From: a virus
Virus record (IMG/VR): IMGVR_UViG_3300002920_000062
Span: 134,123-179,497 of that record
Reading direction: 5' to 3' (one strand)
DNA length: 45,375 nt
This document shows, one piece after another, positions 7,999 through 34,361 of the stretch (the stretch's first letter is position 1; each line of letters opens with the position of its first letter). The notes below the pieces were generated by a model, which had not been told where the DNA came from, made no database searches, and saw only the letters and a list, made by a program, of their open reading frames with translations. The position numbers and the translations under genes were made by a program.

Positions 7999-8448
7999 AT
8001 GGAATGTAAATTTGCTTATAATGACTACATAGAGCGATTACGTTCTTGGATCATGTTAAGGGAATCTATACAAAATAAAGATACCCAAACCATATGTAAA
8101 GAAGTCAACAACTATTGGATAAATCTTAAGACAGAGCGTTATTATCTTCATCCAATTGACATGGAAGATTGGCCCACACCTTGGGAACTAATATATGATA
8201 ACATCTATTGCGGGTATGCCAAAGCTTTAGGAATAATCTATACATTACTGTTATCGGGAATTCGAGACGTTGACTTGGTTGAAATAATGTACGATAATAA
8301 TGAAAACATACCAGTAGTCTTAGTAGATAATGCAAAATATGTGCTTAATTTGCAAGACTATGAACCAGTAAATAGTTTCTCATCAAACTTTACTATCATT
8401 AAGAAATATAACATAGACTTACTAAAGCAAAAGGCAGGAATCACATGA
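7999..8448 (+). CDS. Hypothetical protein, possibly transglutaminase-like (BTLCP-like) fold
   Basis: WPTPWELI...YCGYAKALGIIYTL resembles the WxTP...C...AxAK pattern; stop overlaps nrdA start. Confidence 0.5.
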   Translation: MECKFAYNDYIERLRSWIMLRESIQNKDTQTICKEVNNYWINLKTERYYLHPIDMEDWPTPWELIYDNIYCGYAKALGIIYTLLLSGIRDVDLVEIMYDNNENIPVVLVDNAKYVLNLQDYEPVNSFSSNFTIIKKYNIDLLKQKAGIT

Positions 8449-10094
8449 TCAACATCATAAAGCGTTCGGGAAAAAAGGAAAGTTTATCATTAGAAAAGTG
8501 GCAGCAACAAATCAATAAAATATGCAAAGGGGTAGCAGATGTTAGTCAGTCTATGATTGAAATTAAAGCCCGCCCGCAATTTTACGATGGAATGACTACC
8601 CAAGAAATTGATGAAATCACACTACGAGCTATTGTCGACTTGATTGACGTTGAACAAAATCCTGATGTTGGTCATTCAAACTACCAGTATGTTGCAGGTA
8701 AGCAACGGTTGTCTATGCTTAGAAAAGCAGTATACGGGCAATATGAACCGTGGCCACTATATGATATTGTAAAGAAGAATGTTGAAAGAGGGTTATATAC
8801 TCCTGAATTATTAGAATGGTATACCAAAGAAGAGTGGGACAAGATGGAAGAAATCATTGACCACTCTAAAGATGAACTTTACTCGTATGCCGCCATCGAA
8901 CAGCTAATAGAGAAGTATCTTGTAAAGAATCGTGTCACAAAACAGGTATATGAAACTCCGCAAGTAAGGTACATTGTTGCTGCCGCAACAGCTTTTCATA
9001 TGGAAAACACTGCAAATAGGATAAAATATATTAAGGAATACTATAATGCAGCAAGTGACGGGCACTTTACCTTAGCTACTCCTGTATTAGCTGGTCTAGG
9101 CACTCCCACAAAACAATTTAGTAGTTGTGTACTTATTCGTGTTGATGACGATTTAGATTCAATTTTTGCTGCTGGGGAAATGATGGCAAAATATGCCAGT
9201 AAACGTGCCGGTATAGGTTTAGAAGTCGGCAGAGTTCGCCCTGTGGGTTCTCCTATTCGCGGAGGTGAAATTATGCACACTGGTCTTGTTCCCTTCTTAA
9301 AAAAGTGGTATGCTGACTTACGTTCATGTTCACAGGGAGGTATTAGAAATGCATCAGCGACGGTATTTTATCCTATCTGGCATCTTCAGTTTGAAGATTT
9401 AATTGTTCTCAAGAACAATCAGGGAACAGAGGAAACTAGAGTTCGCCACTTAGACTATGGTATAATGCTCTCAGCATTTTTCCTACGTAGATTCAAGAAC
9501 AAACAAGATATTACTTTCTTTGACCCCAATGAAGTTCCTGACCTATATGAAGCCTTCTACAGTGACAGTGATAAGTTCGAAGAACTGTACATCAAGTATG
9601 AGAAACGCAAGGACATACGTAAGAAGGTAATGAGCGCAGATGATGTATTTCGTTACGGCATCTTCAAAGAAAGAACAGATACTGGTAGAATTTATCTAGC
9701 TTTTACTGATAACATTATGAAGCAGGGTCCGTTTGATCCAAAATATCACCCAATATACCAGAGCAATTTGTGCTGTGTAACTGGCGAAACACAGGTAACT
9801 TTCCTTCATGAAAACGGAAAAATAGAACAAATGTCTGTTGCTAGTGCAGTAGAAAGATTTGAACTTGGCGGACTCAGTAACTCTAAAATCAAAAGTTTTA
9901 AAAATGGTAAAGTTTCTTGGGAAAGCGTTTCCGCTGCTATCAAGACAAAAACAGTCACGGAACTATACGAAATTGAGGACGAACAGGGTAATGTGTTAAG
10001 ATGTACTGGTGATCATCTAGTTTTTACTAAAAACAGAGGTTACGTAAGAGCAGATGAATTAGTAGAAACTGACGAGTTATGTGTTGAAATTTGA
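8445..10094 (+). CDS. nrdA: Ribonucleotide reductase class Ia alpha, N-terminal fragment fused to split-intein IntN
   Basis: ATP-cone start MINIIKRSG; TPVLAG, FSSCVLI, SCSQGGIRNA; ends QSNLC followed by intein block A CVTGETQV. Confidence 0.95.
   Translation: MINIIKRSGKKESLSLEKWQQQINKICKGVADVSQSMIEIKARPQFYDGMTTQEIDEITLRAIVDLIDVEQNPDVGHSNYQYVAGKQRLSMLRKAVYGQYEPWPLYDIVKKNVERGLYTPELLEWYTKEEWDKMEEIIDHSKDELYSYAAIEQLIEKYLVKNRVTKQVYETPQVRYIVAAATAFHMENTANRIKYIKEYYNAASDGHFTLATPVLAGLGTPTKQFSSCVLIRVDDDLDSIFAAGEMMAKYASKRAGIGLEVGRVRPVGSPIRGGEIMHTGLVPFLKKWYADLRSCSQGGIRNASATVFYPIWHLQFEDLIVLKNNQGTEETRVRHLDYGIMLSAFFLRRFKNKQDITFFDPNEVPDLYEAFYSDSDKFEELYIKYEKRKDIRKKVMSADDVFRYGIFKERTDTGRIYLAFTDNIMKQGPFDPKYHPIYQSNLCCVTGETQVTFLHENGKIEQMSVASAVERFELGGLSNSKIKSFKNGKVSWESVSAAIKTKTVTELYEIEDEQGNVLRCTGDHLVFTKNRGYVRADELVETDELCVEI
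9774..10091 (+). mobile_element. Split intein N-fragment (106 aa) in NrdA
   Basis: CVTGETQV (block A), LRCTGDHLVF (block B TxxH), GYVRADEL, then stop. Confidence 0.93.
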
Positions 10095-10310
10095 TTACCA
10101 ATCATAAACGACAAGCAAACTTAACAGAAGTTGGGAGCACTTGAGACTATTAGGAAATGAAACTATTAGTAAGGCAAGAAAAGGAAAATACTAGCAGTTG
10201 AACATTCTAGTAGGCATCGGTGGTACAACAACGGTGTACAAAATGTAAGAGTTACTAACGAAGCAGAATTTTGTAAAAATAACACAGAATATGTATTAGG
10301 AAGAACATAA
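10095..10310 (+). pseudogene. Relic of NUMOD-type homing endonuclease between the nrdA halves
   Basis: Fragments ETISKARKGK and HRWYNNGVQNVRV...EYVLGRT* (stop 10308-10310); no intact ORF. Confidence 0.6.
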
Positions 10311-10312
10311 GT

Positions 10313-11398
10313 ATGATTAAAATTAAAAAAATTGAAGTAGAGCCCACAGATGTATATGACTTATCTGTCCCTGAAACAGAGTGTTTCTTTGCTGATAACA
10401 TATTAGTTCATAATTGTGAAATTCTTCTCCCCACCAAGCCTTTCAAACGCCTTGAAGATCCTACTGGGAGAATTTCTCTCTGTACACTGGGAAGTATAAA
10501 CTGGGGAGCATTTAGAAACCCAGAAGATATGCGTAGAGCATGTCGTATTCTATTGCGCAGTTTGAATAACATTCTTGACTATCAGGATTACTTGAGCATA
10601 CAAAGCAAGTTGTCCAATGAGGAAATTAGACCAATAGGAATTGGGGTTACTAACTTGGCGTATTGGCATGCCAAGCGAGGCCTCAAATATGGGGAAAAAG
10701 AAGCCCTTCAAGAAGTCAACACTTGGGCAGAACACCAGACTTACTATCTGATGGAAGCTAATGTAGAACTTGCTAAGGAACGTGGCAAGTGTTTGGACAG
10801 TGACAAGACTCGGTATGGTCAGGGTAAGTTTTGTTGGGAACTTCGCAGTCAGGGTGTTGATGAGTTGATAAACTTTGAGACTGAACTTGATTGGGAAACT
10901 CTTAGAAAAGAAATGCTTACATACGGGGTAAGAAACGCTACTGTCGGTGCTATTGCCCCTGTTGAATCAAGTAGCGTTGTTATAAATTCTACAAACGGTA
11001 TTGCTATTCCCATGAGCTTGATAAGCGTTAAGGAAAGTAAAGCTGGCTCCTTCGTTCAAGTTGTTCCAGATTATCATATTCCTAGAATTAGAAAAAACTA
11101 CCAGTTACTATGGGAAACTGACTGTGTAGATTATCTGAAGACCGCCGCAGTACTGGCAGCTTGGATGGATCAGTCAATTAGTACCGACACTTTCTATAAC
11201 CCTGCCCACTTTCCTGATAGAAAGGTTCCTACTACACTTGTTGCTAAAAACATAATGTTGGCACACAAGTGGGGACTTAAGACAATATATTACTCCTTGC
11301 TCAATAAAAAAGGAGCTAAACTTGAAGAAGACGAAATTTCTGAATTACCAACAGACGACATTGAAGATGATTCAGATTGCGAGGCATGTAAGCTTTAA
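10313..11398 (+). CDS. nrdA: Split-intein IntC (34 aa) fused to NrdA C-terminal fragment
   Basis: MIKIKK...VYDLSV...FFADNILVHN then CEILLP; CTLGSINW, APVESSS, DQSIS, KTIYY, terminal CEACKL. Confidence 0.95.
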   Translation: MIKIKKIEVEPTDVYDLSVPETECFFADNILVHNCEILLPTKPFKRLEDPTGRISLCTLGSINWGAFRNPEDMRRACRILLRSLNNILDYQDYLSIQSKLSNEEIRPIGIGVTNLAYWHAKRGLKYGEKEALQEVNTWAEHQTYYLMEANVELAKERGKCLDSDKTRYGQGKFCWELRSQGVDELINFETELDWETLRKEMLTYGVRNATVGAIAPVESSSVVINSTNGIAIPMSLISVKESKAGSFVQVVPDYHIPRIRKNYQLLWETDCVDYLKTAAVLAAWMDQSISTDTFYNPAHFPDRKVPTTLVAKNIMLAHKWGLKTIYYSLLNKKGAKLEEDEISELPTDDIEDDSDCEACKL

Positions 11399-11441
11399 TT
11401 ATTAAATAATAACATAATGTTATTAAATGATAAATAAAAGC

Positions 11442-12147
11442 ATGTACTACAAAAAAATACTATGATTTATTAATGAGTAGAAGCAAGAATCGAATTATTA
11501 CTGGTTATACTGAAAAACATCATATTATTACGAAATGTCTGGACGAGCACGGATAATAGTAGCAATATTGCGATTCTTACCCTAGAAGAACATTATTTGG
11601 CACACTTACTATTGGTAAAATGTATCCAAAAAATACACCATTAGTTAATGCGGCTGTTATAATGACTACCCATCATACTGATAAAAGAGTAAATAACAAG
11701 CTACATAGATGGTTAAGGAAAAGAGCATCTGAGGCAGCAAAAGAGAGAAAAAAGAAAAACGGACACTCAAAAGGTATGGTAAGAAAACAACACACATCCG
11801 AATCTAACGCAAGACGGGCGAAAACTTGTCGATACATTATGACAGAAGCGAAGGGGGTTCCTGTCTTCATATATAACACGGATAGAACTTTCCATAAAGA
11901 ATTTAAAACTATAACAGATTGCGCCAAATATTTAGGAACTGCTCCTTCTAATGTAAAATACACAGCCGAAGATAGGTTTGGATATTGTAAAGGTAAAATG
12001 ATAAGATATCAACAACACGAAACTATCGCTTTATATAAAAAGCCGAAGCATCCTCTTATTGGAAGAATACGTTCTCCTGAACATTGTGCTAATATAAGTC
12101 GGGCCAAAAAAGGTAAAACACACAAACAAAAGGACAACCCTGAATAA
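11442..12147 (+). pseudogene. Frameshifted HNH homing endonuclease with NUMOD1/NUMOD3-like C-terminus
   Basis: Broken frames give YTEKHHII..C, NIAILTLEEHYLAHLLLVK; the 11620-12147 ORF has only the DNA-binding part (FKTITDCAKYLG, RSPEHCANISRAKKGK). Confidence 0.75.
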
Positions 12148-12809
12148 TGTTAGAAACTATTTGCGATATTATGGTAGATGCTTACCAAAGAAACTGGATC
12201 ACTAGTCGTGATGGAAATGTAAGTTTACGACACCATGACCGTGACCACTTCTATATTACCCCAAGTGGTGTCAGAAAGCAAACATTACAACCCGACCAGT
12301 TCAAAAAGATTAAAATTCTTAATGACGGTGAATCTTGGGAAGAAATGGAATACACTGACATTAGTAAAAATCTAAAACCAAGCGGTGAAATCCCCCTACA
12401 CTTTGCACTTCAAAAGAAATTGGGCACTAATGGCAAAGACACTAGAGTAGTAGTACATGTTCATCCTACCTACTGTATAGCAGCAATGCACGCCAACATT
12501 GACTTGTCAAAGCTAGTTCTAGAGTTCCCGGAACTTGGTAGGTATACTAAAGTAGCTAAGAATGTTGGCGTTGTACCCCCAATCTCTCAAGCATTAGCCG
12601 ATCAAACAGTAAAAAAGCTAGGTTTAACTGAAGAAGGTGACCTTGACTTTGATATTGTGGGAATCAAAGGACATGGTGTCGTAGCAATTGATTCAACACC
12701 CTGGCGAGCATATGAGCATATTGAGAGACTCAATCATATCTGTAAGATTGTTTTAGCAAGCAAAGCAGCACATCAGCCATGCAAATGTGGCGGAACTAAA
12801 GGATTTTAA
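12147..12809 (+). CDS. Class II aldolase/adducin family protein
   Basis: DGNVSLR, YITPSG, KPSGEIPLH, VVHVHP, KGHGVV metal-binding motifs. Confidence 0.9.
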   Translation: MLETICDIMVDAYQRNWITSRDGNVSLRHHDRDHFYITPSGVRKQTLQPDQFKKIKILNDGESWEEMEYTDISKNLKPSGEIPLHFALQKKLGTNGKDTRVVVHVHPTYCIAAMHANIDLSKLVLEFPELGRYTKVAKNVGVVPPISQALADQTVKKLGLTEEGDLDFDIVGIKGHGVVAIDSTPWRAYEHIERLNHICKIVLASKAAHQPCKCGGTKGF

Positions 12810-12821
12810 GGGAGTGAATAA

Positions 12822-13922
12822 ATGTCTAAAGCACAATATAATTTATCAAACAAAACTGACTATCTAAACAGAAAAATGTTTCTTGATCCCGCCGGGCCAG
12901 TAACTATCCAGCGTTTTGAGGAAGTAAAATATCAAAAGTTACAGAAGTTTGAAACTACTGCTAGGGGTTTCTTTTGGGTTCCTGAAGAAATAAACCTAAC
13001 CAAAGATTCAAGTGATATGAAAGAAGCCTCTGATGCTGTCAAGCATATTTTTACCAGCAACATTCTTAGACAAACTGCACTTGATAGCCTGCAAGGACGA
13101 GCCCCGGCGCAGGTATTCACTCCTGTATGTTCTATCCCAGAACTTGAAGCAATAATGAGTAATTGGTCGTTCTTTGAAACTAACATTCACTCACGCTCTT
13201 ATAGCCATATCATACGCAATATTTATAATGTACCCAAAGAAGTGTTTAATACGATCCACGACACTAAAGAAATTATTGACATGGCTTCAAGCGTGGGTGA
13301 ATACTACGATAAGTTACACGAGGTTAATTGTAGGAAAGAGTTAGGAATAGATGTAGATGAGCAGGAACATATCAATACAATTTATTTGGCTTTACATGCT
13401 AGCTATGCTCTTGAAGCACTTCGCTTTATGGTGTCATTTGCTACTAGTTTGGCAATGGTTGAGAACAAGATATTTATGGGCAATGGCGCAATTATCAGCC
13501 TCATCCTTCAAGACGAATTATTACATAAAGAATGGACTGCATGGATTATCAATCAAGCAGTCAAGGAAGATCCCCGCTTCGCAGTAGCTAAGATAATGTG
13601 TGAAGATGAGGTAATAAAGATTTATCATGATGTTATTCGTGAAGAAAAAGAGTGGGCACAATATTTGTTCAAAAAGGGCCCAGTCATTGGTCTTAATGTG
13701 AACATCTTGTGTGATTTTGTTGATTACACTGCACAAGAATCGTTGAAGGCAGTCGGCATTAAATATTGGAATCCTGCACCAAAGAGCACACCGATTCCCT
13801 GGTTCAACAAACATGCTGATACTTCCAAGAAGCAAACAGCACTTCAGGAAGCAGAATCAACCAATTATGTAATTGGTGTATTATCTGACGATCTAGATTA
13901 TGATGCATTGCCAGAAATTTAA
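12822..13922 (+). CDS. nrdB: Ribonucleotide reductase class Ia beta subunit
   Basis: FFWVPEEI, LDSLQGR, ETNIHSRSY, EALRFMVSF, DELLH, QEAESTNY. Confidence 0.97.
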   Translation: MSKAQYNLSNKTDYLNRKMFLDPAGPVTIQRFEEVKYQKLQKFETTARGFFWVPEEINLTKDSSDMKEASDAVKHIFTSNILRQTALDSLQGRAPAQVFTPVCSIPELEAIMSNWSFFETNIHSRSYSHIIRNIYNVPKEVFNTIHDTKEIIDMASSVGEYYDKLHEVNCRKELGIDVDEQEHINTIYLALHASYALEALRFMVSFATSLAMVENKIFMGNGAIISLILQDELLHKEWTAWIINQAVKEDPRFAVAKIMCEDEVIKIYHDVIREEKEWAQYLFKKGPVIGLNVNILCDFVDYTAQESLKAVGIKYWNPAPKSTPIPWFNKHADTSKKQTALQEAESTNYVIGVLSDDLDYDALPEI

Positions 13923-13989
13923 AGAAAATAAAATGGCAAATTTAGTATTCAGAATCCATTGAACTTGAAATAAGAAAGGTAGACAAAAA

Positions 13990-14220: not shown

Positions 14221-14265
14221 GACAATTTAGATTGATTTTAGATTATCTAGGATGATTTTTTATTT

Positions 14266-19179: not shown

Positions 19180-20176
19180 AGAAGAAATTCTGAGTAAGTT
19201 CCTGGATGGTTCTATCAGCCTAAGTAAGATTGACTATAGGTTCTTCAATAATTTGCAAATTACCTTCAACAAGGGCACGGGAATTACTACCAACCAAGCA
19301 TCATTATTTGACAGGTTAATCAATAAGTATGCCAGACAACTAAGAAAGAATGGTATTGACGTAGAGAAGTCGCTACAACTTTCTTGGAACGGTAAAGTTA
19401 TACCTAGCAATCGTGAGTTTACCTCAGCAAGAATTACAGTTGAAAATAATGACACTCTTGTGTTGAAAGTTCCCTTCAATAACAAGTTCATTCGTGCGTT
19501 TAACCAAAATCCCGGGTGCATTAAATACGACAAGGAGCGACGAGCATACACAGCTACATTCACTACACATAATTTAAAAAAAATGCTGGATATAGTTAAT
19601 CAACACTTTACTTGTTTGGATTTGTGTGATGAGATCAGCAACATTATAACTGACTTGAAGCAATATGAAGCTGCCTACCACGACCCGACACTTGTTGAAA
19701 TCAACGGTAGATTAGTTATTGTAGCCGTCAATCAAGCCCTTGGTGTACATTTAGAGAACATCATTATTGAAAAGACACCAGAATGTTTTGAGAAGTTGTT
19801 GGACTATGGCATTACTATTGACAAGTCAGTCTGGGGTAACGATGAGAAACTAAAGTTTGCTGGTAGCAGAGTATATGAGCTTAACAACTCTAACCTTAAG
19901 GAAGTTGTAGACTATTTAGATGATTTGGGATATGATGGATATGTAATACCAAATTTATCCAGTAGAATGAAAATTTCTGCTGCTTTGGTAAACCAATTTG
20001 AAGTTTCTAACTCTAATCTAGTCTCATTCAGTGCTACTTGGCAAAAGGCTACTGATAGCACTAAGCTTGTGATATTTACACCCAACGAGAGGATATCACA
20101 AAGCTTTGTAGAACAATCTAGAGCCTTCAAGAAAATTATAATTATGAAAGATTCAAGTAGAGTTGAAGTAAAATGA
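19169..20176 (+). CDS. Hypothetical protein
   Basis: 335-aa ORF overlapping both neighbours. Confidence 0.7.
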   Translation: MQYKEEILSKFLDGSISLSKIDYRFFNNLQITFNKGTGITTNQASLFDRLINKYARQLRKNGIDVEKSLQLSWNGKVIPSNREFTSARITVENNDTLVLKVPFNNKFIRAFNQNPGCIKYDKERRAYTATFTTHNLKKMLDIVNQHFTCLDLCDEISNIITDLKQYEAAYHDPTLVEINGRLVIVAVNQALGVHLENIIIEKTPECFEKLLDYGITIDKSVWGNDEKLKFAGSRVYELNNSNLKEVVDYLDDLGYDGYVIPNLSSRMKISAALVNQFEVSNSNLVSFSATWQKATDSTKLVIFTPNERISQSFVEQSRAFKKIIIMKDSSRVEVK

Positions 20177-21210
20177 AAACAGCAAAAATTGAAATAAAGG
20201 ACGAAGTCAATGTAAAGATTCATGATTTAGAGGCCCAAGACAGGCGTGCTCTAATGCGCAAGTTCGAGTTTGAGGTGCCGGGCGCAAGGTTCCTTCCTGC
20301 CGTCAAGATGGGCAGATGGAACGGCAAAACAAGTTTTTTCTCACTTGCGGGCAGCACCTATGTAAACTTACTAGAAGATGTCATAACATACCTTTATGAC
20401 AACAATTATGATATTGAACTTACTGACAATCGTATAGTTAGAGAAAAATTAGAGTTTGACAAGGTAGAAGCGAACAGTTTTGCTCATGTAATGTGGCCCG
20501 AAAATCACCCAGCTGCTGGTCAGCCCATCGTGCTGCGAGATTATCAAGTTGAACTTATAAACAACTTCTTAGAAAACCCGCAATCAATTCAAGAAGCAGC
20601 CACTGGTGCAGGAAAGACCATCGTTACCGCAGCACTATCTTCTAGAGTTGAGAAGTATGGCAGAAGCCTGGTAATTGTGCCAAACAAGAGTTTAGTTACA
20701 CAGACCGAAGCCGATTATATCAACATGGGTCTGGATGTTGGTGTATATTTCGGGGAGAGAAAAGAAGTTGGTAGAACACATACTATATGCACTTGGCAAA
20801 GTATCAACGCACTACTAAATCACCTATCTAAGAAAAGCGAGTTTGAAGAACATCAGACAGTCGTGGATGCGTTCTTTGATAATATAGCTTGTGTCATTGT
20901 TGATGAATGCTTTCATGGTGATAGTAAGGTACTAACGCCAAATGGATATATTCCTATAAAAAATCTAAAAGTCGGGGACAAAGTAATTAATTACTCAGAA
21001 AATAACCACTCTTTCAAAGAGGATATAATTGTTAAAAAACATGTTAATTTAACAGTGTCTTCTACTGAAAAAATGTATGAGTTAGAATTTGATAATGGGA
21101 TTGTTATTAGGGTAACTGGAAATCATAAGTTTTTAACTAATTATGGCTGGTGCAGAGCAGACCAGCTAACGGAAAATCATGAGATTATTCATCAAGACAT
21201 AAATATATGA
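20173..21210 (+). CDS. uvsW: UvsW-like SF2 helicase N-terminal fragment fused to split-intein IntN
   Basis: LRDYQ, ATGAGKT, IVPNKSL, CVIVDE then intein CFHGDSKV. Confidence 0.92.
   Translation: MKTAKIEIKDEVNVKIHDLEAQDRRALMRKFEFEVPGARFLPAVKMGRWNGKTSFFSLAGSTYVNLLEDVITYLYDNNYDIELTDNRIVREKLEFDKVEANSFAHVMWPENHPAAGQPIVLRDYQVELINNFLENPQSIQEAATGAGKTIVTAALSSRVEKYGRSLVIVPNKSLVTQTEADYINMGLDVGVYFGERKEVGRTHTICTWQSINALLNHLSKKSEFEEHQTVVDAFFDNIACVIVDECFHGDSKVLTPNGYIPIKNLKVGDKVINYSENNHSFKEDIIVKKHVNLTVSSTEKMYELEFDNGIVIRVTGNHKFLTNYGWCRADQLTENHEIIHQDINI
20908..21207 (+). mobile_element. Split intein N-fragment (100 aa) in UvsW-like helicase
   Basis: CFHGDSKVLTPNG (block A), IKNLKVGDKV, IRVTGNHKFLT (block B), GWCRADQL, stop. 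Confidence 0.92.
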
Positions 21211-21229
21211 TGCAAAAGCAAGAGTATTT

Positions 21230-22143
21230 ATGAAAATAACTTATGAAACATGGAAAACGTTGTTAAATGAGCGGTTAGAATATTTCAATCAAACAACTAG
21301 AGTAATAGAATATAACAAACAAGAAATACGACTTTAACGATGGCACTAAATTAACCGTAACAGAATACAAAAAGTTTAAGAAAAGGTTAATGAATACTAA
21401 AACTACATTATGCATATAAAATATAGATGCTATTCTTTCTGGAAAGATAACTGTTAAACAAATTAAATCAAAATTATGTTCTATAGGAAGAAAGTCCTGT
21501 CAGAAATTACACAAAGAAACTATTAAGAAAAACCTTAATTCTGGTATCCCCTGGAATAAAGGAAAGCGAGGGTGTCAAATAGGATGGGCTCGAGGGTTGA
21601 CCAAAGATACAGACGCTAGGGTAAAAAACTTACCAAATTTGGTAAAAAAATGGCATGTTCGGTAAAAAACATAATGAGGAAACTAAAAAACTTCTTTCAG
21701 AAAAAATGAAGAAAAAAATATTAGAGGGAACATTTACACCTAATTCTAATAATAGAAATACACATTGGGAAGCAATGTTGGATAACATGAGATATCAGTC
21801 TAGTTGGGAAGCTTGGTACAATTACTTAAACTTGGGCGCAGAATACGAAACACTTAGGATTTCTTATGAATATAACGGTAGTAATAAAGTGTATATCGTA
21901 GATTTCGTGGACCATGAACAAAAACTAGTAATAGAAGTAAAACCCAAAGAACTTACGAATAATTCTCTTTTTGCTGCTAAGTGGAATGCTCTTGGTCAAT
22001 GGGCCAAAAATAATGGGTATTTACCTTTACTCGTTAATCAAACGTGGTTAGTTAGTAATACTACTAGCATTGACTATTTTAGGTTTGATAAAGGAACAGG
22101 TGATAAAATAAGGAATATATATGAAGTTAATAAAAAGAACTGA
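21230..22143 (+). pseudogene. Degenerate NUMOD3 / PD-(D/E)XK homing endonuclease between helicase halves
   Basis: ATG 21230, frameshift ~21335, in-frame TAA ~21417, PWNKGK..GLTKDTDARV, frameshift ~21630-21650, then MFGKKHNEETK...SSWE...YIVDF...VIEVKP. Confidence 0.8.
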
Positions 22144-22957
22144 GATTTCTAAGCCAAACGAAGTATACAATTTACACATCAAAAATGACCATAATTATAT
22201 TGTAGAAGGGGCAGTAGTTTCTAATTGTCACCAAGCTAAGGCCAATGTTCTAAAGGAGTTATTGACAGGCAAGCTTGCCAACGTACCAATTAGATGGGGA
22301 TTAACAGGTACTATACCAAAAGAATTGATGGATCAGGTATCATTACTAGTCTCACTTGGTCCAGTTATCAGCAAGCTTTCTGCTAATGAGCTACAAGAAA
22401 AGGGAGTCCTAGCAAAATGTGAAGTTAACATCATACAGCTTAAAGATGATAGGGAGTTTTCAAATTACCAGAGTGAGCTAAAGTTTTTATTGGAAAATGA
22501 AGACAGAATAAATGCTATTGTTGGTATGATAAACCAGATAGCACAAACAGGTAACACTCTTATATTGGTGGATAGAATTTCGGCAGGAAGAAACTTAGCG
22601 GCTAAATTACCAGACTCGGTGTTTATTAGCGGTAGTACTTCACTGACTGAACGGAAAGAAGAATATGATGAGGTTGCGACACAGGATAACAAAGTACTAA
22701 TTTGTACTTATGGAGTAGCAGCGGTAGGAATCAACATTCCACGTATTTTCAACCTAGTGTTAATTGAACCAGGCAAGAGTTTTGTAAGGGTTATTCAGTC
22801 AATTGGTAGAGGTATTCGCAAAGCAAAAGATAAGGATTTTGTTAACATCTACGATATCACAAGTAGCTGTAAGTTTTCTAGAAGACACCTTACTCAACGT
22901 AAGCAGTATTACAGAGAAGCAAATTATCCTTTTAAAGTTACAAAAGTGAGTTATTGA
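22121..22957 (+). CDS. uvsW: Split-intein IntC (35 aa) fused to UvsW-like helicase C-terminal fragment
   Basis: MKLIKR...VYNLHI...HNYIVEGAVVSN then CHQA; GLTGT (motif III), GINIPRI, QSIGRGIR (motif VI). Confidence 0.92.
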   Translation: MKLIKRTEISKPNEVYNLHIKNDHNYIVEGAVVSNCHQAKANVLKELLTGKLANVPIRWGLTGTIPKELMDQVSLLVSLGPVISKLSANELQEKGVLAKCEVNIIQLKDDREFSNYQSELKFLLENEDRINAIVGMINQIAQTGNTLILVDRISAGRNLAAKLPDSVFISGSTSLTERKEEYDEVATQDNKVLICTYGVAAVGINIPRIFNLVLIEPGKSFVRVIQSIGRGIRKAKDKDFVNIYDITSSCKFSRRHLTQRKQYYREANYPFKVTKVSY

Positions 22958-25681: not shown

Positions 25682-26260
25682 ATGAAAGGAATTTGTATGG
25701 CTAAACGCCATTTAATGGTAGACTTAGAAACTTTAGCAACCTCACGAAACGCAGTAGTGTTGTCAATTGGCGCTACGATATTTGACCCTACGGAAAAATC
25801 AATTATTGATACACTTTATCTTAAGGTAGATATTGAGGAACAAACACAAACCTATAACCGTTTCGTCAGTGAAGAAACTCTTAAATGGTGGAGCGAACAA
25901 AGTGAGGATGCTATTATTGAAGCAATGGGTGATGAAGGCCGTGTCAGTTATCGTGAAGCAATGGAAACACTAAGTAAGTTTGCATGGGGTGCAGATAGAG
26001 CCTGGGCAAACGGTTCAGTATTTGACATAATCATTCTTGAAGATTGTTTTGCTGACCTAGGCATGACCGTTCCCTGGCAGTTTTATAACATCCGTGACTG
26101 TAGGACAATTTATGAAATTGCCGGTGTAAGTCTCAAAGACAAGAAGTATAACACTAAGACTACTCATAAGGCTTTGGATGACGCCATTCACCAAACAGTA
26201 GTTATTCAGGATGCTTACCAAAAGCTTATCGGTCTAGGTTTAACTCATTTACTACAATGA
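25682..26260 (+). CDS. DEDDh 3'-5' exonuclease
   Basis: HLMVDLETL, WANGSVFD, RDCRT, HKALDDA. Confidence 0.9.
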   Translation: MKGICMAKRHLMVDLETLATSRNAVVLSIGATIFDPTEKSIIDTLYLKVDIEEQTQTYNRFVSEETLKWWSEQSEDAIIEAMGDEGRVSYREAMETLSKFAWGADRAWANGSVFDIIILEDCFADLGMTVPWQFYNIRDCRTIYEIAGVSLKDKKYNTKTTHKALDDAIHQTVVIQDAYQKLIGLGLTHLLQ

Positions 26261-26488
26261 ACAGCAAACAAGAAAATCCTTTGCGTTCACTTAAGAAATT
26301 AAATCTTATTCAGTCTTTCAAGCGCTGTTTTAAGATGGTATTATTGAGACAAGCTTTGAATACGTTGAGAGGTTAAACATGAGTTATTTCCTCCATTATT
26401 TTATTTGATATTGTTTTGATCATAGATTGCCTAGAACGAAACATTCTGCTAGACTATTGAACAAGAAAACGGTGTGTTAACAGTTAAT

Positions 26489-27061
26489 ATGAGAACAGGT
26501 ACAGATGTAGATATAGATGTGGCCTCGCGGGAAAAACTACTATCCCTAATTACTCATACCAGTGCGGCGATGCGAAATGTTAATCCTATACGTAAGCACC
26601 CAAGTGGTATCTATGTTTCTGATATCCCCTACGACCCTATTCACGACATGGCTGCAATAGATTATACTGAGGCCCAAGAGCGTGGATACTTCAAGATTGA
26701 CATTTTAAACGTTCATGTTTACGAACAAGTTAAGGATGAAGAACATCTAATTAGGTTGATGCAAGAACCTGATTGGTCTATGCTATACGACCCGCGATAT
26801 ATTAGAAATCTAGTTCATTTGAACAACTCATTCAACATCCTTAAAAAGATGCCTGAACCAGTTGACAGTATTCCCAGACTAGCAATGTTCTTAGCTATTA
26901 TTAGACCTGCCAAGAAGCATTTACAAGGTCTAACTTGGAAAGAGGTAGCAGAAACAGTTTGGGACAGAGAAGACGGTGAATATAGTTTTCGTAAAAGTCA
27001 TGCCATCGCATATGCCCACTTAGTGGTAATTCATTTGAATTTAATGAGAGGAATACAATGA
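26489..27061 (+). CDS. Minimal DNA polymerase III alpha (DnaE)-like protein
   Basis: DVDIDV, HPSGIYV, GYFKIDIL, LAIIRP, FRKSHAIAYA in ~190 aa. Confidence 0.8.
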   Translation: MRTGTDVDIDVASREKLLSLITHTSAAMRNVNPIRKHPSGIYVSDIPYDPIHDMAAIDYTEAQERGYFKIDILNVHVYEQVKDEEHLIRLMQEPDWSMLYDPRYIRNLVHLNNSFNILKKMPEPVDSIPRLAMFLAIIRPAKKHLQGLTWKEVAETVWDREDGEYSFRKSHAIAYAHLVVIHLNLMRGIQ

Positions 27062-27584: not shown

Positions 27585-27585
27585 T

Positions 27586-28287: not shown

Positions 28288-28395
28288 TACTTTTTCTTTT
28301 TGGATACTTTTTGATAATTCAGAAAAAGTATGATATTATAAAATCAAAAGGAGGTTCTTGCTACTTATAATATATCGTATGTAGTGAGGAATATA

Positions 28396-30021
28396 ATGGA
28401 TAAATGTGAATATTGTAAAGTAAATGATGTATTATTAAACAAGAAAGGTAAACCTTTAAGATATTGTTCTAAAAGTTGCCAACACTCACATACTATACAG
28501 AAGAGAAATCAGACAAATATCGCAAGATATGGCACAACTAACCCCATGATGTTAGATGAGGTTAAAGAAAAGCGTAAAAATACCAATATAGCCAGATATG
28601 GCACAGACAAGCCGTTTCTATTGCCTGAAATTCAAGAAAAATACAAAGCAACTTGCCGAATTAAATTTGGAGTAGATTTTCCGTCACAATCAGAAGGTAT
28701 AAGAATTAAGCAGAAAGAGGCGTGGGTTAAGTATAAGAACAACCATCCTCTTTCAGATAACCTTATACGAAAAAAACGAGAAACAACACTATTTGACAAA
28801 TTTGGTGTTAAGCACCCCATTCTACACCCTGAAATCAAGAAAAAAATTGAACAAACCAATTTAAAAATATACGGATGCCCAAATGCTGCATCTTCTAGTA
28901 TTGTCACAGAAAAAATAAGTCAAAAATTAAATTCTTCCGAGACAAAAGAAAAAATAATTCAAACCAACTTGGAACGATACGGAGTTCCTTACTACAATCA
29001 GAAAAATATAAAAGAAGCTCTTCTAATATTAGAAGATAGTAATAAGGCCACTGAGATTATCACTACTTTGGGCATGACAGGAGCAGCCCAATTCTTGAAC
29101 GTATCAATTGATACCATTAGAAAATATGTATTAATGCATGAAATTACTATTCAGAAACGTATTAGTGATTTTGAAATTCAAGTAGCTAATTTTTTAGCAG
29201 GCCTTCTACCAAATTCTCAAATTGTCAAGAATGACAGAACGTTGATAGGAAAAGAGTTGGATATTTATATACCTGACTATAATATAGCAATAGAATGTAA
29301 CGGGTTGTATTGGCACAGTGAGTTGAATGGTAAAACAAGCAATTACCATATAGAAAAAACCAAACAATGCAAAGAAAATAATGTTAGATTGTTACATATT
29401 TGGGAAAATGACTGGAATATTAAACAACCGATTGTAAAATCCAGACTTAGCTCTGTTTTAGGAAAAAATACAACGGTTTATGCAAGAAAATGTATGATTA
29501 AAGAGGTTAATACAAAAGATACTCAAGAATTTTTATCTAACAACCACCTTCAAGGATATTGTGCTTCTTCTGTAAAATTAGGATTATATGAAAATAATAA
29601 ATTGGTGAGTCTAATGACTTTTGGAAAAAGTAGATTCACACGCAAGTATGATTATGAACTTATCCGCTATTGTAATAAATTGGGAATCAATGTAGTAGGA
29701 GGTGCAAGCAAATTATTTGCATATTTCATCAAACAATACAGCCCTAAAAATGTAGTATCATATTCTTCTATAGATTTTAACACTGGCGAAATGTATTCTC
29801 ATTTGGGGTTTAAAAAAACCCATTCATCATGTCCGGCATATTATTATACTAAAAATTACTTAGTTCTAGAAAATCGCATCAAATATCAAAAGCACAAACT
29901 AAAAAAGATATTACCAATCTACGACGACAGCCTATCAGAATGGGATAATATGAAATTAAATGGGTATGATCGGATATGGGATTGTGGCAATGATGTTTGG
30001 TTATGGGAGTCTCTTTACTAG
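28396..30021 (+). CDS. Homing-endonuclease-like protein: Zn finger, K-x-T-N-x-x-RYG repeats, PD-(D/E)XK nuclease, GNAT-like C-terminus
   Basis: CEYC..YCSKSC; repeated TNIARYG; ELDIYIPDYNIAIECNGLYWH; IWENDW; GYDRIWDCG. Confidence 0.8.
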   Translation: MDKCEYCKVNDVLLNKKGKPLRYCSKSCQHSHTIQKRNQTNIARYGTTNPMMLDEVKEKRKNTNIARYGTDKPFLLPEIQEKYKATCRIKFGVDFPSQSEGIRIKQKEAWVKYKNNHPLSDNLIRKKRETTLFDKFGVKHPILHPEIKKKIEQTNLKIYGCPNAASSSIVTEKISQKLNSSETKEKIIQTNLERYGVPYYNQKNIKEALLILEDSNKATEIITTLGMTGAAQFLNVSIDTIRKYVLMHEITIQKRISDFEIQVANFLAGLLPNSQIVKNDRTLIGKELDIYIPDYNIAIECNGLYWHSELNGKTSNYHIEKTKQCKENNVRLLHIWENDWNIKQPIVKSRLSSVLGKNTTVYARKCMIKEVNTKDTQEFLSNNHLQGYCASSVKLGLYENNKLVSLMTFGKSRFTRKYDYELIRYCNKLGINVVGGASKLFAYFIKQYSPKNVVSYSSIDFNTGEMYSHLGFKKTHSSCPAYYYTKNYLVLENRIKYQKHKLKKILPIYDDSLSEWDNMKLNGYDRIWDCGNDVWLWESLY

Positions 30022-30378
30022 TATAATGCTTTTTCTTTTTGAACGTTTTTTTGACAACTCAGATAGAGACACTATAGGTCCGTGTAGTATCTCTAATCCT
30101 TTATTATTAAATGTTTTGGTGTAATTCTTGAAAATTGTCCACTCGTCTTTCAAAAATATGTTTATAGGAATTTGTCTATTGGATTCCCACCACCATATGT
30201 CACCCAGTTCTAAGAACCTTACCTTAAGTTCAGGTTCAACTATAGCACCGTAATCATATATTGTGGTTACGGTATCATCTCGGTTTTGTATTATCCCAAC
30301 ATAGTCTTGGTTGTTGTATGAACAAACAGTAATGTATGGGTGCAAGTCGCTTAATTTTTTAAAAAAATCCTCGTTCAT
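30001..30378 (-). CDS. Hypothetical protein
   Basis: 125-aa ORF (WWWESNRQIPINIFL), TAAATA on minus strand at 30385-30390. Confidence 0.75.
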   Translation of the reverse strand: MNEDFFKKLSDLHPYITVCSYNNQDYVGIIQNRDDTVTTIYDYGAIVEPELKVRFLELGDIWWWESNRQIPINIFLKDEWTIFKNYTKTFNNKGLEILHGPIVSLSELSKKRSKRKSIILVKRLP

Positions 30379-30458
30379 TTTCTATATTTAATTCTTATAA
30401 TTTGCCCAAATATTTATTTTTACTCTACAAGCTAAATAGTAGCAGTCAGGAGAAAAAA

Positions 30459-31199
30459 GTGTTTAGTACTTCAGTATATCATTATGTCCCAAGACAATTG
30501 GTTACTGTTTTGACAATAGATTCGGTAAGGAAGTATGCGCCCGTGTATAGTAAACCATTAGTTCTTCATAAAGGTGTAGAAAACAAGCTATCGTTCCAGT
30601 TTTTGAACAACGAACAAAAGCCCATCAACTTAACTAGTAATCATATCATATTAAGGATTATTGATAGCACGGGAAAGAAAATTCTCTTGGAAAAAGAATT
30701 AGACCTCGAGTTTGCTTTGACTGGTATAGCTTCATTGAATGTCGTGCCAGATGATATTGAAGGTATTGATTCTCAGAAAGCCTTTTACTCGCTAGAAATC
30801 ATAAGAGGCAATAATCATTACCCGGTATATCTGACTAAGAACACAACGGCAAGAGGCGAAATGACAATTGTAGACAGCATCTTACCGTCGTTTATACCGT
30901 CTGATATCTTGACCATACCAACTCTCACTGAACCGGTTGTTTTCCCTGCCAACTACCTAAGCAGTGTATATAATTCTAATTCGCTTGTTACTACTTTCCA
31001 AGTTACATTGAATGATTACACAGGAACATTTACTATAGAGGGCTCTTCCCAGTCACTTACAAGCTGGTATGAAATTGATACTTATAGCTATACTAACAAA
31101 ACCGGGACAGTTGGGATAACGGTTAAAGGATATCACCCGTTACTTAGAATAAAATTCAATAGCACACAGGGAATAGTTACCAATATTCTTGTAAGATAG
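30459..31199 (+). CDS. Putative structural protein (BppU-N-like)
   Basis: GTG start after AGGAG; HKGVENKLSFQFLNNEQKPINLT; TAAATA at 30433. Confidence 0.6.
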   Translation: MFSTSVYHYVPRQLVTVLTIDSVRKYAPVYSKPLVLHKGVENKLSFQFLNNEQKPINLTSNHIILRIIDSTGKKILLEKELDLEFALTGIASLNVVPDDIEGIDSQKAFYSLEIIRGNNHYPVYLTKNTTARGEMTIVDSILPSFIPSDILTIPTLTEPVVFPANYLSSVYNSNSLVTTFQVTLNDYTGTFTIEGSSQSLTSWYEIDTYSYTNKTGTVGITVKGYHPLLRIKFNSTQGIVTNILVR

Positions 31200-31298
31200 T
31201 TACAAATTGTGCTATACTTTGATAATACAAACTATGTTGTCACGCGTTGTGCACAAAAAATATCTTTCTAAAGAACAGGCTCTATGCAATAAAAATTA

Positions 31299-32279
31299 AT
31301 GCTTAATATACTATCAATAATACCAGGTAAGAAAAAACGGACGTCTAAGGGATGGGTCGTGTTTAACGCCATCTGTTGCCATCATCGAGGCCACAGGCCC
31401 GACAAAAGAATGCGGGCTGGTATTATCAGTGATGGTAGAAGCCAAACTTATCATTGTTTTAACTGTGATTTTAGCACAAGACTAACTCTTGGAAAACCAC
31501 TGAGCAAAAAGACTAGACAGCTTTTAAAGTGGGCCGGATTAGACGATGATGAGATTAATAAGTGGAGCATTGAAAGCCTCAAGCAAAAGGACATTTTTGA
31601 TTTAATTCCAGAATTTCACAATAAAAAGATTGAGTTTAATCAAGTGCCCTTGCCTAGCAATGCAGTGTTGCTTGACAAAAACAACATAGCTCATAAGGTT
31701 TATAAGGACTTTTTATGGAAAAGAGGATATTCTCCCGATGACTATCCATGCTATGTTACACCCAATGATAAAAATACAAGGAACAAGAATAGAATCATTT
31801 TTCCTATTACATATAAAAACAAAAATATCGGATATATTAGTAGGTATATTGATGACAAGTTACCCAAATACATGAAAGAAAATCAACCTGGTGTATTATT
31901 TGGTTATGACTTACAGAAACCTGAATATGAAGTAGCACTAGTATTTGAGGGGGTGTTGGATGCAATTGCTTTTAACGGTTGTGCATTAATGCATGACGAT
32001 ATTAGCGACGAACAAGCTATTCTACTCAGGAACTTGAATAGAAAGATTATTGTAGTACCAGACCAAGACAAGACGGGCATGAACATCATAGACAAAGCGT
32101 TAGAATTGGGCTTCTATGTTTCACTTCCAGACTGGTCGCCTAGAGTAAAAGACGCTAATGATGCAATTATTAAATATGGCAAAATTCCAACACTGCTAAG
32201 TATACTACAAAACGCAACTAGGAACAAAATTATAATCAAGATGAAAAGGGAAAAACTTGCTAAAAGAACTCAATCATAA
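31299..32279 (+). CDS. DNA primase (gp61/DnaG-like)
   Basis: Zn-binding CCHH...YHCFNC; TOPRIM FEGVLDA and VVPDQD; KDANDA. Confidence 0.9.
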   Translation: MLNILSIIPGKKKRTSKGWVVFNAICCHHRGHRPDKRMRAGIISDGRSQTYHCFNCDFSTRLTLGKPLSKKTRQLLKWAGLDDDEINKWSIESLKQKDIFDLIPEFHNKKIEFNQVPLPSNAVLLDKNNIAHKVYKDFLWKRGYSPDDYPCYVTPNDKNTRNKNRIIFPITYKNKNIGYISRYIDDKLPKYMKENQPGVLFGYDLQKPEYEVALVFEGVLDAIAFNGCALMHDDISDEQAILLRNLNRKIIVVPDQDKTGMNIIDKALELGFYVSLPDWSPRVKDANDAIIKYGKIPTLLSILQNATRNKIIIKMKREKLAKRTQS

Positions 32280-32359
32280 CTTACCGTTTTCTTGTGTTAA
32301 GACTTTATACTCATGCTAAAAAAAGTTGTTTTATTTCTTAGAGGTGATATTATATTAAT

Positions 32360-32974
32360 ATGGCAAAAATTACAGAATACACCCCAGAGATACAATCATT
32401 GTTTTTATCTATTATGTTAACCGTGCCTGAGTTATATACCAGGGTGGCTAACATATTTAATGTTGAGAATTTTTCTAAATCTGTTCGTCCGGCCGCAGAG
32501 TTCATAAAAGATTATGTAGAAAAATATTCTTTTGTTCCTACTATAGAAGTGGTAAACAAGATGACTTCGGTTAATCTTGAATGCCTTGATTTAGATACTG
32601 ATACCATAACTGATTTCTTTTTAGAAGAATTTGAGTCGTTCACTAAACGACAAGAGCTTGAAAGAGCTATTCTTAAAGCAGCCGATTTGCTTGAAAAGGG
32701 TGAGTTTGAACCAGTTGAGAAATTAGTCAAAGATGCGGTACAAATCTCATTAGTCAAGAACATGGGTACAGACTATTTTGCTGACCCTGAAGACCGCCTA
32801 AATAGATATTTCAACCAAGGTGGTCAGGTATCTACAGGCTGGCCACAGCTTGATAGAATCATGTATGGCGGTATGAGCAGAGGCGAACTAAACATCTTTG
32901 CTGGTAGCAGCGGATGCGTCACTGAGGATACCTTAGTTGAAGTCATTGAACTACCTGATCTTACCTTAGAGTAA
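32360..32974 (+). CDS. Replicative DnaB/gp41 helicase N-terminal fragment with 19-aa split-intein IntN
   Basis: STGWPQLDRIMYGGMSRGELNIFAGSSG, then CVTEDTLVEVIELPDLTLE*. Confidence 0.92.
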   Translation: MAKITEYTPEIQSLFLSIMLTVPELYTRVANIFNVENFSKSVRPAAEFIKDYVEKYSFVPTIEVVNKMTSVNLECLDLDTDTITDFFLEEFESFTKRQELERAILKAADLLEKGEFEPVEKLVKDAVQISLVKNMGTDYFADPEDRLNRYFNQGGQVSTGWPQLDRIMYGGMSRGELNIFAGSSGCVTEDTLVEVIELPDLTLE

Positions 32975-33017
32975 AATATCATATGTAGTATGATTATCTT
33001 AAAGAGGTTTAAAATAG

Positions 33018-34361
33018 ATGAATTATGTAAATGTAAGCAAAGAGTTAGAATATCTTAGACAATTTTACACTTTTGCAGAATTGGATAATTATGCAAAGGG
33101 CAATGATGCTAAAATAGTATCATTATATGAAAAAACCCAGCCAAAAAAAGTTCCGATAGGTAGTTTATACGGGAAAACTGAAAATTCTAACTTTGTAGTA
33201 AGTAGTCCTGACGGATGGGTGCAGGTAATTGACTGTATTCAAAAAATAAAGTCAGATATGTATAATGTAATTTTTAAAAACGGCACTCATATCAAAGCTA
33301 GCCATGATCACTTATTTCAGAAACCTGATCAGTCATGGCATTATGTCAGGGATCTTAATAAGGGTGATGTAATTTTAAGCGAATGGGGATATGAGGAGAT
33401 AGAGGAAATTTCTTCTTATCAAAAGAAAACTAAAGTATATGATTTGTCAGTTGGTCATAAAAATCATAGATATTATACTTCTGGAATTTGTAGTCATAAC
33501 ACGGGCAAAAGTTTAGTTATGATGAACTTGGCGTTAAATTGGTTAAGTCAGGGATTATCAGGGGTTTATATTACTCTTGAGCTTAGCGAAGAATTAACCT
33601 CGCTAAGAACTGACGCCATGATGACAGGCATGAGTACCAAAGACATACGAAAGAATATTGAAGATACTGCCTTGAAGGTTAGACTACAAAGAAAGAAAAT
33701 GGGCCAGTACCGAATTAAGGACTTGCCAGCGCAAAGTAATGTAAATGCCATCCGAGCATATATCAAAGAGCTACAAGTACAGACTGGTATCAAGATTGAC
33801 TTTGTTATGATTGACTATTTGGACTTGGTCATGCCGGTAAGTGTTAAGGTCAATCCCAATGACCAGTTTATTAAGGACAAATATGTTAGTGAAGAGTTGA
33901 GAAACTTAGCCAAAGAATTTGGTGTGTTGATGGTAACAGCAAGCCAGTTAAACAGAAGTGCAGTAGAAGAAATTGAATTTGATCACAGTCACATTGCGGG
34001 CGGCATCTCAAAGATAAATACAGCAGACTATGTTTTTGGTATATTTACTAGCAGAAGTATGAGAGAGCGGGGCAAATACCAAATTCAGTGTATGAAATCT
34101 CGTAGTTCAACTGGGGTTGGGCAGAAGATTGATTTAGATTATAATATAGAAACAATGCGTATTACGGATAGCGGTACAGAAGATACTAAGCAAGAACCCC
34201 AAACACCGTCAAGACTTATGGACCAAATAAGAAAACGCGAAATCATTGATCCAGAAACGGGTGAGATAACAGAAGAAGTGCCTAAAATAAGAGCAGATGT
34301 TAGAGGAACTAGTTTAAATAAATTGCTTCAGTCACTTAAAAAGGATCACGGTTTGAACTAG
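33018..34361 (+). CDS. Long split-intein IntC (161 aa) fused to DnaB/gp41 helicase C-terminal fragment
   Basis: AAAGAGG RBS; IKASHDHLF (block B), VYDLSV..HRYYTSGICSHN (blocks F/G), then TGKS, YITLELSE, IDYLDL, TASQLNR. Confidence 0.92.
   Translation: MNYVNVSKELEYLRQFYTFAELDNYAKGNDAKIVSLYEKTQPKKVPIGSLYGKTENSNFVVSSPDGWVQVIDCIQKIKSDMYNVIFKNGTHIKASHDHLFQKPDQSWHYVRDLNKGDVILSEWGYEEIEEISSYQKKTKVYDLSVGHKNHRYYTSGICSHNTGKSLVMMNLALNWLSQGLSGVYITLELSEELTSLRTDAMMTGMSTKDIRKNIEDTALKVRLQRKKMGQYRIKDLPAQSNVNAIRAYIKELQVQTGIKIDFVMIDYLDLVMPVSVKVNPNDQFIKDKYVSEELRNLAKEFGVLMVTASQLNRSAVEEIEFDHSHIAGGISKINTADYVFGIFTSRSMRERGKYQIQCMKSRSSTGVGQKIDLDYNIETMRITDSGTEDTKQEPQTPSRLMDQIRKREIIDPETGEITEEVPKIRADVRGTSLNKLLQSLKKDHGLN

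Follow-up and report, generated by a model that had tools for sequence, protein, structure and literature searches.

The window analysed here is a 45,375-nucleotide stretch (positions 134,123 to 179,497 of the IMG/VR virus record IMGVR_UViG_3300002920_000062). It is the terminal 45 kb of a linear 179.5-kb virus contig, estimated by CheckV to be ~52% complete, and its source is an uncultured jumbo phage. Three genes of DNA metabolism in the window, encoding the class I ribonucleotide reductase (RNR) NrdA, a UvsW-like superfamily 2 (SF2) helicase and a replicative helicase of the gp41/DnaB type, are each present as two genes on the same strand, whose halves carry the N- and C-terminal parts (IntN and IntC) of three different split inteins. 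Very probably these loci go back to parasites that invaded on three separate occasions, leaving genes of an already known type, the fractured genes, and do not constitute a designed control system. Fractured genes of environmental phages, with NrdA, NrdJ and gp41 among the hosts, were described by Dassa, London, Stoddard, Schueler-Furman and Pietrokovski in 2009 (PMC2677866), and the finding is a real instance of this known phenomenon. The three loci look like three stages of the one gene-breaking process that these authors described.

Anatomy of the three broken genes

A sequence-only reading of the window had placed the breaks (marked here by a slash) at SNLC/CEI in NrdA, DE/CH in the UvsW-like helicase and GSSG/TGKS in DnaB, with IntN/IntC sizes of 106/34, 100/35 and 19/161 aa, and had assigned to each enzyme two genes and an intein pair of its own. 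All of these junctions and sizes are exact (Table 1), and the catalytic residues are intact. Pfam domains are detected in the exteins (Ribonuc_red_lgC in the NrdA halves, ResIII and Helicase_C in the helicase halves, DnaB_C in the C half of DnaB). The N-extein of NrdA comprises the ATP-cone, the all-alpha domain and the first half of the barrel. The Pfam family Intein_splicing is found at all six broken ends, in each individual case below the gathering score. All three inteins have Cys1, a block B motif of the form (T/S)xxH, block F and a terminal Asn, and the +1 residue is Cys in NrdA, Cys in the helicase and Thr in DnaB. These are the residues of class 1 inteins: C1, TGDH and HN/C in NrdA, C1, TGNH and SN/C in the helicase, and C1, SHDH and HN/T in DnaB. 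The six extein/intein frames are open, and Shine-Dalgarno-like, purine-rich sequences lie upstream of the three C-half starts.

Table 1. Coordinates of the fractured genes and associated open reading frames (ORFs) in the window
Feature	Position	Strand	Description	Support
NrdA N part ORF	8445-10094	+	443 aa extein + 106 aa IntN	
NrdA N-extein	8445-9773	+	443 aa, ends ...YQSNLC	Pfam; boundary from 72 uninterrupted relatives
NrdA IntN	9774-10094	+	106 aa + stop; Cys1, block B (CTGDH)	Pfam, motifs
NrdA spacer	10095-10312	+	218 nt, deletion relic of free-standing HNH homing endonuclease gene	
NrdA C part ORF	10313-11398	+	IntC, then rest of barrel	
NrdA IntC	10313-10414	+	34 aa, ends ...NILVHN	Pfam, motifs
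NrdA C-extein	10415-11398	+	327 aa, begins CEILLP (+1 Cys)	
NUMOD1 ORF downstream of nrdA	11620-12147	+	175 aa, homing-endonuclease type	PHROG 655, Pfam NUMOD1
Helicase N part ORF	20173-21210	+	245 aa extein + 100 aa IntN	
Helicase N-extein	20173-20907	+	UvsW-like SF2 helicase, 245 aa, ends ...VIVDE (motif II)	ResIII, DEAD, weak UvsW_N
Helicase IntN	20908-21210	+	100 aa + stop; Cys1, block B (VTGNH)	
Endonuclease pseudogene	21211-22143	+	free-standing NUMOD3 + PD-(D/E)xK-type homing endonuclease	PHROG 15427/22417; TnsA-like_N, NUMOD3
Surviving nuclease-domain ORF of pseudogene	21655-22143	+	162 aa	
Helicase C part ORF	22121-22957	+	IntC, then Helicase_C	
Helicase IntC	22121-22225	+	35 aa, ends ...AVVSN, without penultimate His	
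Helicase C-extein	22226-22957	+	243 aa, begins CHQAKA (+1 Cys)	VH in intein-free relatives
DnaB N part ORF	32360-32974	+	185 aa extein + 19 aa IntN	
DnaB N-extein	32360-32914	+	gp41/DnaB-type helicase, 185 aa, ends ...FAGSSG (first half of Walker A)	PHROG 19
DnaB IntN	32915-32974	+	19 aa + stop; block A only, net charge -6	
DnaB spacer	32975-33017	+	43 nt with AAAGAGG ribosome-binding site, without endonuclease gene	
DnaB C part ORF	33018-34361	+	IntC, then DnaB_C domain	
DnaB IntC	33018-33500	+	161 aa; ~42-aa helical insert, then blocks B (SHDH), F, G (CSHN)	
DnaB C-extein	33501-34361	+	286 aa, begins TGKS (+1 Thr; second half of Walker A)	
Homing-endonuclease-type free-standing gene	34362-36053	+	563 aa	PHROG 3339, DUF7487, restriction endonuclease (REase) hits

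The boundaries were compared with those of relatives, which were taken for each gene from the best 80 matches, lists biased towards full-length and intein-bearing hits. In uninterrupted nrdA genes QSNLC/CEILL is joined without intervening bases in 68 loci, and four more have Met or Leu at +1. The helicase motif VDE/VH is joined in the same way in 23 loci. For DnaB, 77 uninterrupted relatives join at the exact break residue, and in 76 loci AGGSG/SGKSL is free of intervening bases. Since the uninterrupted relatives join precisely at the predicted splice points, the boundaries are not due to chance. A frameshift or assembly error at the DnaB break was also considered and rejected: the C part has an AAAGAGG sequence of its own, the same split is present in the relative L008, and C halves of 39 clusters have the same start.

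At all three loci a conserved enzyme is encoded by two same-strand ORFs broken at a conserved motif, and the N half ends in an IntN and the C half starts in an IntC with HINT motifs. The same layout of DNA-metabolism genes was reported by Dassa et al. (2009), whose loci carry a free-standing GIY-YIG or restriction-fold endonuclease between the halves; in the window this place is taken by a 218-nt relic (NrdA) or a pseudogene (helicase), or the endonuclease is absent (DnaB). One of the published gp41 loci (gp41-7) is likewise without an endonuclease, and one terminase is split atypically. The published host list does not contain the UvsW-like helicase that the window has. The window further differs in the DnaB break within Walker A with a 19-aa IntN, in the NrdA intein at the NrdJ-type point, a single residue on the C-terminal side of the published NrdA point (PMC2677866), and in the presence of three loci together on one contig, which the short Global Ocean Sampling (GOS) reads of the 2009 study could not show.

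The anatomy supports the view that full-length NrdA, helicase and DnaB would be obtainable only through the three different intein pairs. The sequence-only reading had itself named intact copies elsewhere in the genome, alongside decaying split copies, as a finding that would speak against it. Such copies were looked for by tblastn with all six halves, and within the 179.5-kb contig only self-matches of nrdA, helicase and dnaB were returned. It may be argued that the split genes are non-functional remnants and that the phage uses the enzymes of its host, or unbroken versions of the genes encoded in the half of the genome that the contig lacks; the incompleteness of the contig and the visible decay of the endonuclease genes in the same loci would fit such an explanation. 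We regard it as very unlikely, since the frames and catalytic residues are intact and Shine-Dalgarno-like sequences precede the C halves, the sequenced part holds no second copy, and the relatives searched have one match per gene in comparable gene neighbourhoods. Moreover, the same split layout is found in many diverged phages, and that of the helicase also in the cultured Salmonella phage S16.

We propose that, in each of the three genes independently, a mini-intein residing in a catalytic motif of an essential replication enzyme was broken apart when a free-standing homing endonuclease gene entered it. The inteins reside at the residue after the thiyl-radical Cys of NrdA, in the DExH box of the UvsW-like helicase and in the Walker A loop of gp41/DnaB. 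The endonuclease genes would since have decayed, to the 218-nt relic in NrdA, to the frameshifted pseudogene in the helicase and to complete deletion in DnaB, and the split inteins would have been retained because their loss would kill the enzyme. Each IntN/IntC pair is expected to bring its half-proteins together for protein trans-splicing, giving ...SNLC-CEI... in NrdA, ...DE-CH... in the helicase and ...GSSG-TGKS... in DnaB. The three pairs in one cell would then be three accumulated selfish elements and not a set under selection. An alternative is that the halves assemble non-covalently, with the intein pieces as mere dimerisation handles. Non-covalent reassembly is reported for the mobE-fragmented NrdA of an Aeromonas phage (PMC3045599). 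The breaks in the window fall within the active-site loop (NLC-C-E), the DExH box and the P-loop, and ~140-180 intein residues at such places would prevent catalysis. Across the families, all nucleophiles and the terminal Asn are conserved, which is sensible only if splicing is under selection. Non-covalent assembly is thus extremely unlikely, and trans-splicing remains the preferred explanation.

Intein families and endonuclease remnants at the three loci

The insertion point in NrdA lies directly after the invariant Cys of the motif N-L-C-x-E, which we take to be the equivalent of the thiyl-radical Cys439 (E. coli NrdA numbering). In two relatives, L168 and L169, an intact 310-aa ORF of the HNH type (PHROG 655) is located between IntN and IntC of the same split NrdA intein. 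The 218-nt spacer of the window aligns to three collinear fragments of this ORF, and its 3′ end shares 84% nucleotide identity with the HNH gene over the last 99 nt (E 2e-27). These collinear pieces and the similar 3′ end identify the spacer as a deletion relic of the endonuclease gene. PHROG 655 also includes the 175-aa NUMOD1 ORF downstream of nrdA in the window. The intein of the window is 95% (IntN) and 92% (IntC) identical to that of L168, and the exteins are 79% and 74% identical. Among sequences with solved structures, NrdJ-1, a split intein (8UBS), matches the NrdA IntN best (E 1.5e-12), over IntN residues 44-105 only. Both inteins show the canonical split, the IntN measuring ~100 aa and the IntC ~35-40 aa, and both are inserted directly after the RNR thiyl-radical Cys. 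The host of NrdJ-1 is a class II NrdJ, and its +1 residue is Ser, whereas the host in the window is a class I NrdA with Cys at +1.

Other insertions were observed in nrdA. In L182, L196, L197, L221 and L232, and also in G004 and G006, nrdA is interrupted by 924-1725 nt a few codons downstream of the active-site loop. None of these insertions matches the NrdA intein of the window; introns, inteins of another kind and genes for endonucleases are all possible identities. The active-site loop region of nrdA looks like an insertion hotspot.

In the helicase locus, the endonuclease gene is a pseudogene with one stop and two frameshifts in its N-terminal half, as is evident from the comparison with the intact ORFs of L098, L093 and L101. 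The insert of 1318 nt has the same length as in relatives with an intact endonuclease ORF. Such an ORF of ~300 aa, with NUMOD3 motifs and a TnsA-like/PD-(D/E)xK nuclease domain, lies between the helicase halves in ~39 loci among the best 80 relatives. A further 24 loci are intein-free, seven carry a contiguous mini-intein (three of them verified single ORFs), six contain endonuclease relics, and three are split with nothing between the halves. The helicase family thus displays the whole gene-breaking cycle. The claim of the sequence-only reading that none of the inteins has an intact embedded endonuclease holds; what it missed are the relics of free-standing endonucleases between the halves, in the NrdA spacer and in the helicase pseudogene.

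Cys1 is present in 33 out of 33 distinct alleles of the helicase IntN, with TxxH conserved as well, and the terminal Asn and the +1 Cys are present in all 30 distinct alleles of the IntC. The penultimate residue is S, A, E or T. Contiguous alleles, encoded by one ORF of 628-638 aa, must splice in cis, and the usual penultimate His is missing there too. In 44 of 46 loci conservation is higher in the intein parts (medians 67% and 80%) than in the exteins (58% and 64%). The contiguous mini-intein was observed in L102 (2930-3355) and also in L103-L106, L088 and L144. In L102 a relic of the 3′ end of the endonuclease gene is readable in another frame across the joint, which suggests that the halves of a split intein became joined again when the endonuclease gene was deleted.

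The fractured helicase has a counterpart in Salmonella phage S16 (NC_020416), in which UvsW is encoded by gp114 (N half and IntN) and gp115 (IntC and C half) with the 291-aa gp114.1 in between. The S16 match spans 97% of the N half of the window helicase, intein included, and the kin of S16 share the layout. S16 differs from the window phage in being T4-like, with a genome of 160 kb, an identity of ~33% and a single intein match in the genome; its genes are annotated as 'DNA helicase' and 'hypothetical protein', not as a split intein. The host protein is present in databases and belongs to PHROGs 16259 and 9690. A literature search joining 'split intein' with 'UvsW' found no paper in the library covered, and so the UvsW-like host protein may be undescribed in print; a search for 'T4Lh' returned unrelated papers only.

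At the DnaB site only one of the 78 informative relatives among the best 80, L008, is interrupted. Its IntN of 21 aa and IntC of 161 aa are separated by a free-standing ORF of 363 aa (2926-4017), which is gone in the window. This ORF belongs to no family in Pfam or PHROGs; possibly it represents a new sort of homing endonuclease, a label that rests on its position only.

A database search with the 161-aa DnaB IntC retrieved 52 other clusters. Together with that of the window, 39 of the 53 are split C-halves, which start at the same position and mostly have an IntC of 152-186 aa, and 14 are contiguous, with inteins of 136-188 aa inside full-length helicases. The 19-aa IntN of the window aligns with the first strands of these 14. 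For both the helicase and the DnaB inteins, contiguous alleles of the cis-splicing type are known from sequence. Of the 53 clusters, 31 have Ser and 22 have Thr at +1. In a set of 49 homologues there is no variation in block B Ser, Asp and His, in the Asp of block F or in the terminal His-Asn. The closest solved relatives found by phmmer are VidaL (6VGV, E 3e-6) and Cat (6DSL, CatC; 3.6e-5), with gp41-1 also among them. An AlphaFold (AF2) model of the contiguous relative P0008 has a mean predicted local distance difference test (pLDDT) score of 77. In this model the split point falls in a low-confidence loop (residues 198-202) after the second strand (190-195), and three short helices (207-239) precede the HINT beta fold. 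In a Foldseek search with the model, VidaL was the best intein match (target-normalised TM-score, TMt, 0.85) and T4 gp41 the best extein match. An insert of ~35-40 aa was observed directly after the natural split point in the DnaB intein family (33018-33145 in the window, IntC residues 1-42); a few contiguous members, such as P0019, are without most of it.

Natural atypical splits have an IntN of 15-37 aa and occur after strand beta-2 (VidaL, PolB16) or after helix alpha-1 (TerL inteins) (PMC13014065; PMC10189870). The DnaB intein has a 19-aa IntN ending right after beta-2 and an IntC with blocks B, F and G, as in the S1 definition (PMC13014065), and it is homologous to characterised atypical split inteins by phmmer and Foldseek. 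The very short IntN and long IntC are shared with VidaL, Cat/AceL-TerL and PolB16 OarG, and the split just after beta-2 (the S1 position) with VidaL and PolB16. Since it is split after beta-2, the DnaB intein is of the VidaL/PolB16 type, a new member and not a new kind, one of a sizeable family of inteins that resemble VidaL and have atypical splits. It is distinguished from VidaL, Cat and PolB16 by its gp41/DnaB P-loop host, by Cys1 with Thr or Ser at +1 and by the three-helix insert of ~35-40 aa; its identity to VidaL is low and comes to 18% in the fold alignment. The Walker-A intein of DnaB might, though this is improbable, represent an undescribed natural S1-type family with a three-helix insert and Cys1 together with Ser/Thr at +1.

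Distribution among relatives and the question of co-selection

Co-inheritance of the three inteins was assessed by scanning the contigs of 14 relatives for inteins and eight of them for the three host genes. None of the 14 contigs contains two of the three inteins. In the NrdA-split relatives G001 and G002 the helicase is uninterrupted, as is DnaB in G002. In G003, where DnaB is split, the helicase is uninterrupted. Conversely, DnaB is uninterrupted in G004-G006, where the helicase is split; NrdA is uninterrupted too in G005, and in G004 and G006 it is broken by something other than the NrdA intein of the window. Two near-complete relatives, one of 524 kb (100%) and one of 335 kb (95%), gave no intein match at all, and some other relatives carry additional, different inteins. 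By protein, the closest cultured relatives of the source phage are the jumbo myoviruses PA5oct and MIJ3 of Pseudomonas, Atu_ph07 of Agrobacterium and Phosso of Sinorhizobium, which are 48-54% identical. In these jumbo phages of the PA5oct, Atu_ph07 and Phosso types, nrdA, helicase and dnaB are all uninterrupted. No near-identical cultured phage was found by megablast.

Since each intein occurs alone in the relatives and no contig has two, the trio is likely to have come about by accumulation and not by co-selection. Separate occurrence, endonuclease relics and inteins more conserved than their exteins are the signature of selfish elements that home independently and horizontally. Selfish elements are known to accumulate in essential genes as phage genomes enlarge (Iyer et al., PMC7824862).

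The three inteins share 30-31% identity pairwise (NrdA against helicase: 32% for IntN, 29% for IntC), and the three pairs are probably free of cross-reaction because they are only ~30% identical. Fifteen out of 16 unrelated inteins were mutually orthogonal in the work of Pinto et al., with leaks mostly in atypical splits that have a short peptide fragment (PMC7090010). Orthogonality is thus the default for unrelated inteins and requires no selection; judged from the sequences, mutual orthogonality of the three pairs is plausible.

The sequence-only reading had gone further and regarded the pairs as a naturally co-selected orthogonal set, with splicing as a post-translational checkpoint on replication. 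In its full form this explanation would have redox-, metal- or temperature-dependent splicing couple deoxynucleoside triphosphate (dNTP) supply, replication and recombination. Conditional splicing has been described for some inteins, including mycobacterial DnaB inteins. All three inteins of this one genome interrupt replication enzymes at catalytic motifs, and the NrdA and UvsW pairs, as had been pointed out correctly, share their architecture and a +1 Cys; both also have Cys1. However, catalytic-motif sites are the normal outcome of homing into conserved DNA, and orthogonality is expected by default. The occurrence of each intein alone in relatives, the near-complete relatives without any, the decayed endonuclease genes and the higher conservation of the inteins argue for selfish homing. 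Co-selection of the set is therefore not supported by the sequences, and the data are silent on a replication checkpoint; the regulatory reading is not supported either. We consider the checkpoint set improbable, and we judge it equally doubtful that the three pairs are functionally co-adapted and strictly orthogonal, in spite of the similar interface polarity of the NrdA and helicase pairs, with at least one of them splicing conditionally on redox state or metal. If this were true, dNTP synthesis, replicative unwinding and recombination-dependent replication would start jointly once the cell is infected.

Several points weigh against independent invasions followed by trans-splicing. Splicing activity is predicted only from the conservation of the catalytic residues, and the system is known from an uncultured metagenomic contig. 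Intact gene copies may lie in the missing half of the genome. The helicase intein has VVSN in place of the usual penultimate His, a trait of the whole family, contiguous alleles included. The NrdA and helicase pairs share their split architecture and interface polarity, with acidic IntN tails (RADEL.E.DE and RADQL.ENHE, respectively) and basic IntC heads (MIKIKK and MKLIKR, with a VY(D/N)L motif after each), and some cross-talk between them may occur. Finally, the proportions among the best 80 matches are not population frequencies.

Coexisting split inteins are known in nature and are seldom shown on a single contig. Literature searches on the co-occurrence of split inteins within a genome, and on such inteins in jumbo phages, returned the PolB split intein of MIJ3 as the only specific case. 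The finding leaves the view of phage replication control unchanged. Its value lies in showing, side by side, three stages in the decay of an endonuclease gene once an intein has been split, in the sizeable family of the atypically split DnaB intein, and in a candidate natural ligation toolkit that already shares one cell. This toolkit would consist of a pair resembling NrdJ-1, the helicase pair, in which the penultimate His is missing, and the DnaB pair with a 19-aa IntN, whose family offers many natural split and contiguous variants.

Neighbouring genes

The window has a GC content of ~36%, and its other genes encode a major head protein, glycosyltransferases, NrdB, a primase, a peptide deformylase and tail fibres. 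A fourth intein of the genome, contiguous and with an embedded HNH endonuclease motif, was observed in a portal-like gene just upstream of the window (G000:C1 ~129586-132447; L004 445-3306), the open frame of which runs off the locus at 954 aa. The 563-aa gene of the homing-endonuclease type abuts dnaB and starts one base after its stop codon. A 545-aa paralogue, 40% identical, is located at 28384-30021. Both belong to PHROG 3339 ('homing endonuclease') and combine several DUF7487 motifs with a core that resembles Vsr/REase and with a C-terminal domain that is conserved.

A 192-aa ORF (25682-26260) has motifs of DnaQ-type 3′-5′ exonucleases by eye, and the adjoining 195-aa ORF (26474-27061) matches a 197-position PHROG annotated as 'DNA polymerase' from end to end. 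Polymerase functions may thus be encoded in separate small genes in the window. Two tandem paralogues of 257 and 250 aa (37158-37931 and 37928-38680) have matches to PHROG 12810 that are confined to the first 250 of its 788 positions.

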